From the IMG/VR virus record IMGVR_UViG_2850767282_000002: 16,672 bases of DNA; one strand, given 5' to 3'. Each line of letters opens with the position of its first letter. Within the stretch, counting starts at the first letter, position 1. The notes below the pieces were generated by a model, which did not search any database, was not told where the DNA came from, and saw only the letters and a program-made list of their open reading frames with translations. The position numbers and the translations under genes were made by a program. The DNA is from a virus. Its lineage: Duplodnaviria > Heunggongvirae > Uroviricota > Caudoviricetes. Shown here in pieces: positions 6,318 to 6,715 of the stretch.

Positions 6318-6715
6318 TGTGGCGCTTATCTGCGAACTTGATGAGCAATGGAGTTTCGTTGGCAGTAAAGCCCGGCAACACTGGCTCTGGTACGCGTATA
6401 ACACCAAAACAGGGGGGGGGACTGGCCTACACTTTTGGTCCCCGTACCGATGAAACCTGCCGGGAACTACTGGCACTGCTTACGCCATTCAACATCGGCA
6501 TGATCACCAGCGACGACTGGGGCAGCTATGGCCGGGAGGTGCCGAAGGATAAGCATCTGACCGGAAAAATATTCACCCAACGGATTGAGCGCAATAACCT
6601 GACGCTGCGCACCCGCATTAAGCGCTTGGCTCGTAAAACAATCTGCTTCTCGCGTTCAGTAGAGATCCACGAAAAAGTCATCGGGACGTTTATTGAAAAA
6701 CACATGTTCTACTAA
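6318..6715 (+). pseudogene. insB: IS1 insB with a +1 frameshift in a poly-G tract
   Basis: G9 run at 6412..6420 where copies 2 and 3 have G7-T; upstream of the tract the InsB N-terminus (VALICELDEQW...) is in one frame and downstream the C-terminus (LAYTFGPRTDET...) continues in the insA frame. Confidence 0.7.

Follow-up and report, generated by a model that had tools for sequence, protein, structure and literature searches.

The 16,672-nucleotide stretch analyzed here (hereafter the window; IMG/VR record IMGVR_UViG_2850767282_000002) holds three copies of IS1N, an iso-IS1 of Shigella dysenteriae in the IS1 family of insertion sequences (IS), and one of them (copy 1) carries a run of nine G within insB′, the frame that encodes the catalytic part of the transposase. 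Judged from assembled sequences, this run is probably a real, heritable +1 mutation, and copy 1 is expected to produce the regulatory protein InsA without an active transposase. The window matches S. dysenteriae assembly GCA_900457215.1 (contig UAUQ01000013.1) with 100% identity and is a lambdoid prophage remnant of that species.

The tract of copy 1 reads AAAACA-GGGGGGGGG-ACTGG, with its nine G at 6412-6420 on the + strand, whereas copies 2 and 3 read AAAACA-G7-T-ACTGG, a difference pointed out in the original prediction and reproduced by direct reading, a pattern search, and a three-way alignment. On the plus strand, the tracts of copies 2 and 3 appear as C7 at 8938-8944 and 15051-15057, each preceded by an A (8937 and 15050). 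In the rest of the element, one base (6476) separates copy 1 from copy 2, and three (6315, 6538, and 6579) separate it from copy 3; with about 99.5% identity among three copies of the same element, chance is not a concern. No other homopolymer in the window is as long as G9 (next longest runs, 7). G9 is not a pure length variant of G7-T, since turning one into the other takes a T>G change as well as an added G.

Copy 1 (5963-6729, + strand, 767 nt) aligns with copies 2 (8628-9393) and 3 (14741-15506), both of which lie on the minus strand, are 766 nt long, and carry G7-T in frame. It shares 99.6 to 99.9% identity over 767 nt with records annotated "IS1-like element IS1N family transposase," and its length and ends are those of the IS1 family (about 768 bp, imperfect repeats starting GGTGATGC); a length of 766 to 768 bp and terminal inverted repeats of this kind are common to IS1N and the window copies. 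The left repeat (IRL, 5963-5985, + strand, GGTGATGCCTCTAATTAGTTGAA) is the same in all three copies, and the right repeat (IRR, 6707-6729, + strand, ending in TTGGAAGCATCACC) has the reverse complement GGTGATGCTTCCAATTAGTAGAA, an imperfect inverted match to IRL. The internal organization is likewise that of IS1N, with a zinc ribbon and helix-turn-helix in insA, an A6C motif, and a DDE_Tnp_IS1 domain in insB′. In copy 1, insA is intact (6020-6292, + strand, 90 amino acids [aa], stop TAA at 6290-6292; Pfam matches Zn_ribbon_InsA, 4e-23, and HTH_Tnp_IS1, 3e-28), and its exact protein product is present on about 1000 contigs. The A6C motif (AAAAAAC, 6268-6274, + strand) is where ribosomes are programmed to shift by −1, normally joining insA to insB′. 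InsA acts as repressor of the IS1 promoter and as an end-binding protein, while the InsAB′ transposase, which has the DDE catalytic motif, is made only via the −1 frameshift at A6C (PMC12903888). The fusion rebuilt from copy 2 has 231 aa, is identical to WP_134810160.1 ("IS1-like element IS1N family transposase"), and carries DDE_Tnp_IS1 at residues 102-231 (Pfam).

In copy 1 this arrangement is disrupted. From the slip site, the insB′ frame (−1; 6271-6453, + strand) ends at a premature TGA (6451-6453), giving a 144-aa InsAB′ product that retains the DNA-binding domains but only positions 1 to 34 of the 131-position DDE_Tnp_IS1 profile (Pfam). The InsB C terminus lies instead in an open reading frame (ORF; 6305/6311-6715) that, like insA, is in frame 2. 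Read from 6311 to 6715 on the + strand, this 134-aa ORF starts with 36 out-of-frame residues before entering the InsB C-terminal part; it covers profile positions 30 to 131 (Pfam), contains the SDDW and ERNNLTLR motifs, and sits behind the insA stop with no in-frame link to insA. A complete DDE_Tnp_IS1 in a continuous insB′ frame is found in copies 2 and 3 but not in copy 1. The frame reading and the Pfam matches agree with what was originally proposed, namely, that a net +1 places the InsB C terminus (most of DDE_Tnp_IS1) in the insA frame and that the normal InsAB′ fusion frame is broken. By comparison with the motifs of classical IS1, the frame break would separate the first Asp motif (LDEQW) from the second Asp and Glu motifs (SDDW, ERNNLTLR). 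With insB′ broken, copy 1 is therefore a defective member of IS1N and not a member of another family.

We then compared the tract among IS1N copies of S. dysenteriae. An in-frame G8 allele (T>G, valine to glycine) exists at several copies, and G7 and G9 are out of frame; because in-frame G8 is common in the species, the frameshifting step is that from G8 to G9. This intermediate (INTERMEDIATE), together with a growing run, refines the original account. G8 is carried by plasmid CP026779.1, where it is annotated as an intact IS1N transposase, and by seven S. dysenteriae plasmids, among them pSD1_197 from the Sd197 reference, and the G8 ORF2 proteins (P0032 and P0062) each correspond to at least four Sd197 accessions (ABB...). 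G9 is not private to copy 1 or its assembly, since public records contain the exact 134-aa frameshift ORF, on 10 contigs, under the name "iso-IS1 ORF2" (SPZ78416.1, SPZ78937.1), and G9 is present at nine different chromosomal loci in five assemblies among the loci retrieved. An exact look-up found this ATG-start version on record and no 136-aa TTG-start version. A comparison with other IS1 copies of the lineage had been suggested as a check on the tract, and it yielded both the recurrence of G9 and the G8 intermediate. Cluster mates of the frameshift ORF show other tracts (G8-T, G5-T, and G6-A), and many IS copies in the retrieved loci have split or shortened transposase ORFs. Across deposited S. 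dysenteriae assemblies, the tract takes the forms G5-T, G6-T, G6-A, G7, G7-T, G8, G8-T, and G9, and it sometimes differs between strains at one insertion (e.g., G8 versus G9 at position 12279 of loci L004 and L007). This diversity is a mix of real variation and miscalls.

In other hosts, the run is interrupted. The exact G9 allele was absent from 72,556 plasmids, 5,426 Escherichia coli genomes, and Joint Genome Institute metagenome contigs, and a scan of species-representative genomes returned interrupted runs only. These take the form G5-T-G-T in Raoultella, Klebsiella, and Pluralibacter and G4-A-GG-T in an E. coli plasmid; all 19 matching E. coli genome records were 96.6% identical to the 89-nt query, and each of the 12 among them that were listed spanned 88 nt. 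Every IS1N copy examined in E. coli, Raoultella, Klebsiella, and Pluralibacter was in frame, and the alleles form a graded series from the interrupted run through G7-T and G8 to G9. A conserved recoding signal at the tract is ruled out, as in-frame interrupted runs are the rule outside Shigella and the frameshift is derived.

Whether the ninth G is a slipped-strand mutation or a homopolymer error, the two options raised in the original prediction and, in our judgment, the right pair, was addressed by reading the same insertion in other assemblies. The orthologous insertion was identified by its adjoining DUF1737 gene, and alleles were read from the assembled sequences. The insertion carries G9 in five assemblies: UAUQ01 (the window), CP026786 (NCTC 9718), CP026782 (08-3380), CP026784 (80-547), and CP118616 (SC595), with the SC595 copy identical to that of the window at 767 of 767 positions. 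Such agreement at one insertion favors a heritable mutation over a random miscall. The assemblies also appear able to resolve the two lengths. In each of them both G8 and G9 occur, at different IS1N copies with identical local sequence, and the plasmid IS1N copy is G8 in the Sd197 plasmid record and in 08-3380, 80-547, and SC595, so the last three distinguish G8 (plasmid copy) from G9 (DUF1737 insertion). Locus-specific agreement across assemblies and this plasmid control led us to reject random overcalling of G8 as the sole cause. A copy with a private cysteine-to-arginine change is recorded solely with the frameshift allele (9 contigs), its in-frame form being absent from the collection.

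Several observations weigh against a real G9. The evidence comes from assembled sequences. The insertion is G8 in CP026777 (69-3818), CP026878 (07-3308), and the 1617 draft, and it is G7-T in Sd197, the complete 1617 genome (CP006736), and CP061527, though the IS interiors of these last three look unreliable. Sibling assemblies differ in G/C-run length even at short runs of unique genes (CP026774 and CP026777 have C5 and C6, respectively, in ydcA). The exact G9 ORF is recorded from NCBI assemblies only and not from the read-derived Logan or ENA sets, in which the G8 (P0032) and G8-T (P0003) forms do appear. The alleles at two plasmid loci of 69-3818 appear swapped relative to other strains, and recombination between IS copies may shift alleles among loci defined by their flanks. 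In that strain, G7-T stands at a plasmid copy (CP026779.1, 189795-192322) for which six other strains have G8, and G8 stands at a second plasmid copy (L001), which is a same-length variant in other strains, a pattern consistent with exchange of IS halves between copies.

The strongest competing explanation is that the true tract is an in-frame G8 which long-read consensus overcalled by one base. Homopolymer-length errors are the commonest residue in long-read-only bacterial assemblies, and errors within repeats are hard to polish (PMC8812927). In the sibling assembly CP061527, five sites within 20 kb have one more G than CP026777, and one of these, an extra G that frameshifts xylG, is shown to be wrong by comparison with 5,416 E. 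coli genomes. Besides the three G8 assemblies and the absence from Logan and ENA, a copy marked by a tyrosine-to-histidine change is G8 on 4 contigs and G9 on 6. Nevertheless, five assemblies agree on G9 at this insertion, and the coexistence of G8 and G9 within assemblies amid identical flanks argues against a context-driven error. The window and CP026786 align over 16.7 kb with zero homopolymer indels. Where it can be checked, moreover, the disagreeing assembly deviates by −1: 07-3308 has G6-T at copy 3 (G7-T in six other assemblies) and G7 at the plasmid copy (against G8), and with G8 at the DUF1737 insertion it is one G short at three tracts, which points to undercalling in that assembly. 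We therefore regard a miscall at copy 1 as unlikely.

Not every assembly was suited to this comparison. At the insertion, Sd197 (CP000034.1) combines G7-T with an isoleucine-to-leucine change, and about 20 positions in 5.7 kb set it apart from the long-read assemblies, every one of them within IS copies and none in unique sequence, which suggests that its IS interiors were assigned from other copies or were homogenized differently. We rejected Sd197 as an arbiter on the view that its IS sequence at individual copies is unreliable or has been changed by gene conversion. The complete genome of 1617 (CP006736) and CP061527 were set aside because the region is full of indels or fragmented ORFs; CP061527 also has many indels within IS copies and should not serve for frameshift calls. 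Congruence of G8/G9 with flanking single-nucleotide polymorphisms was uninformative, since the other variable sites in the 6.2-kb loci of the long-read assemblies lie within IS copies and conflict with one another.

A different proposal concerns the function of the run rather than its accuracy. Two T>G steps could have made a hypermutable G8, such that a subfamily (the nine G9 loci) flips between in-frame G8 and out-of-frame G7 or G9, either as a stochastic ON/OFF switch or, via RNA polymerase slippage, as a transposase throttle in an IS-saturated genome; we consider this very doubtful. Still less credible, and in our estimation highly improbable, is that the tract of copy 1 itself is a reversible switch, by G8/G9 DNA slippage in the style of a contingency locus or by RNA polymerase slippage yielding G8 transcripts that restore InsAB′. 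Length does vary among copies and among strains at one insertion (G5-T, G6-A, G6-T, G7, G8, G8-T, and G9), but part of that variation is probably sequencing error, and nothing beyond it supports a contingency switch or transcriptional slippage. Transcriptional slippage on A/T runs is an established device of IS elements (PMC1088944), but the known cases concern such runs, and the IS1N copies examined outside Shigella all keep the frame with an interrupted run, making the frameshift derived and not a conserved design. A deletion in SC595 with one endpoint precisely at the right terminus of the G9 copy would be consistent with transposase action there, but it could equally well stem from transposase supplied in trans or from recombination.

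The heritable +1 mutation proposed for copy 1 probably arose as follows. Within an S. dysenteriae sublineage, point substitutions would have turned an interrupted run (G5-T-G-T or G4-A-GG-T) into G7-T, and a further T>G (valine to glycine) would have produced a pure G8 with the frame kept. Replication slippage may then have added one G, giving G9 and placing the +1 in insB′ between the LDEQW and the SDDW/ERNNLTLR motifs. InsA, the repressor and end-binding protein, would still be made, while ribosomes shifting −1 at A6C would halt at 6451-6453 and release a 144-aa protein with the DNA-binding domain but without a complete catalytic site, so that copy 1 would be unable to supply its own transposase. 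Its ends are intact, and it could presumably be moved by transposase from other IS1N copies; a larger InsAB′ supply is reported to mobilize otherwise immobile IS1 copies in trans (PMC12903888). Loss of one G could restore function to copy 1.

The surroundings of copy 1 suggest a later event. IS1-family insertions are expected to have target duplications of 8 to 9 bp. Copies 2 and 3 are flanked by 8-bp target duplications (AACTTCGG at 8620-8627/9394-9401 and GATATTTA at 14733-14740/15507-15514, respectively), and copy 1 has no such duplication, its flanks AAAATAACT (5954-5962) and CCATTTACA (6730-6738) being mismatched. The missing duplication suggests a later rearrangement at copy 1, which probably went through an IS-mediated event such as an adjacent deletion, inversion, or intercopy recombination. 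SC595 (CP118616.1) lacks the 3,034 bp that follow copy 1 in the window (6730-9763), and with them the spacer, an IS600-like element, the gene for DUF3927, and IS1N copy 2. Copy 1, which is G9 in this strain as well, joins position 9764 exactly at its right end, the shape of an adjacent deletion from an IS1 end. This is a hint that a defective copy was acted on by transposase in trans.

The rest of the window is equally rich in insertions. The remnant retains genes for a Q antiterminator, RusA, DUF968, Hok, a holin, DUF1327, DUF1737, and DUF3927, and its IS load comprises the three IS1N copies, two classical IS1 copies, an IS2, and nested IS3-family elements. S. dysenteriae type 1 carries hundreds of IS insertions, with IS1 the largest contributor (PMC7373316), and an IS-rich remnant fits that expansion. 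A complete IS3-family element occupies 7057-8329 on the minus strand (orfA, 7963-8265; orfB, 7109-7927) and has an inverted twin within 1184-3708, in two pieces (1184-2013 and 3263-3708) separated by a second IS3-family element at about 2014-3262; the arms of the inverted pair are 99 to 100% identical. Names under plasmid matches suggest IS600 and IS911 as tentative labels for these elements. The classical-type IS1 copies each have a 91-aa InsA and a 125-aa InsB ORF. The first (9812-10579, 768 bp) is flanked by the 8-bp duplication TAAGGCTC; the second (15920-16672) is cut by the window end, and CP026786 has a 2-bp deletion within it (window 16411-16412).

Set beside intact IS1N, copy 1 is distinguished by the T>G change with one extra G, the truncation of InsAB′ to 144 aa, and the missing target duplication. 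It resembles the pseudogenized IS copies of IS-expanded Shigella genomes, but in contrast to lesions at scattered positions, that of IS1N falls repeatedly, across many copies, in a single hotspot, the G run. As at poly-G/C contingency loci, which phase-vary by slipped-strand mispairing, a coding G8/G9 run (at least 7 bases) sets the frame, and its length appears to differ among close strains; at this insertion, the relatives divide into five with G9 and three with G8, at least one of the latter (07-3308) being one G short at two other IS1N tracts. Unlike such loci, however, the run arose recently, by point substitutions in a mobile element, and part of its variation may be error. A one-base difference in the longest G run of a region, within a repeat, also resembles residual long-read homopolymer errors; what sets it apart from them is that G9 is reproduced in five assemblies, alongside G8 at copies with the same local sequence.

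Copy 1 is an ordinary defective copy of a known element, with a common type of mutation, and it is already in public annotation. The finding has little importance beyond annotation, where copy 1, predicted to be nonautonomous with InsA intact and the transposase truncated, is to be flagged as a frameshifted pseudogene. More broadly, the IS1N G run in S. dysenteriae is a hotspot of one-base disagreement between deposited assemblies, and counts of intact and defective IS1N copies consequently vary with the quality of the assembly. The run's growth in steps, from interrupted to G7 to G8 and then to apparent slippage, offers a small example of the birth of a homopolymer hotspot within a gene.
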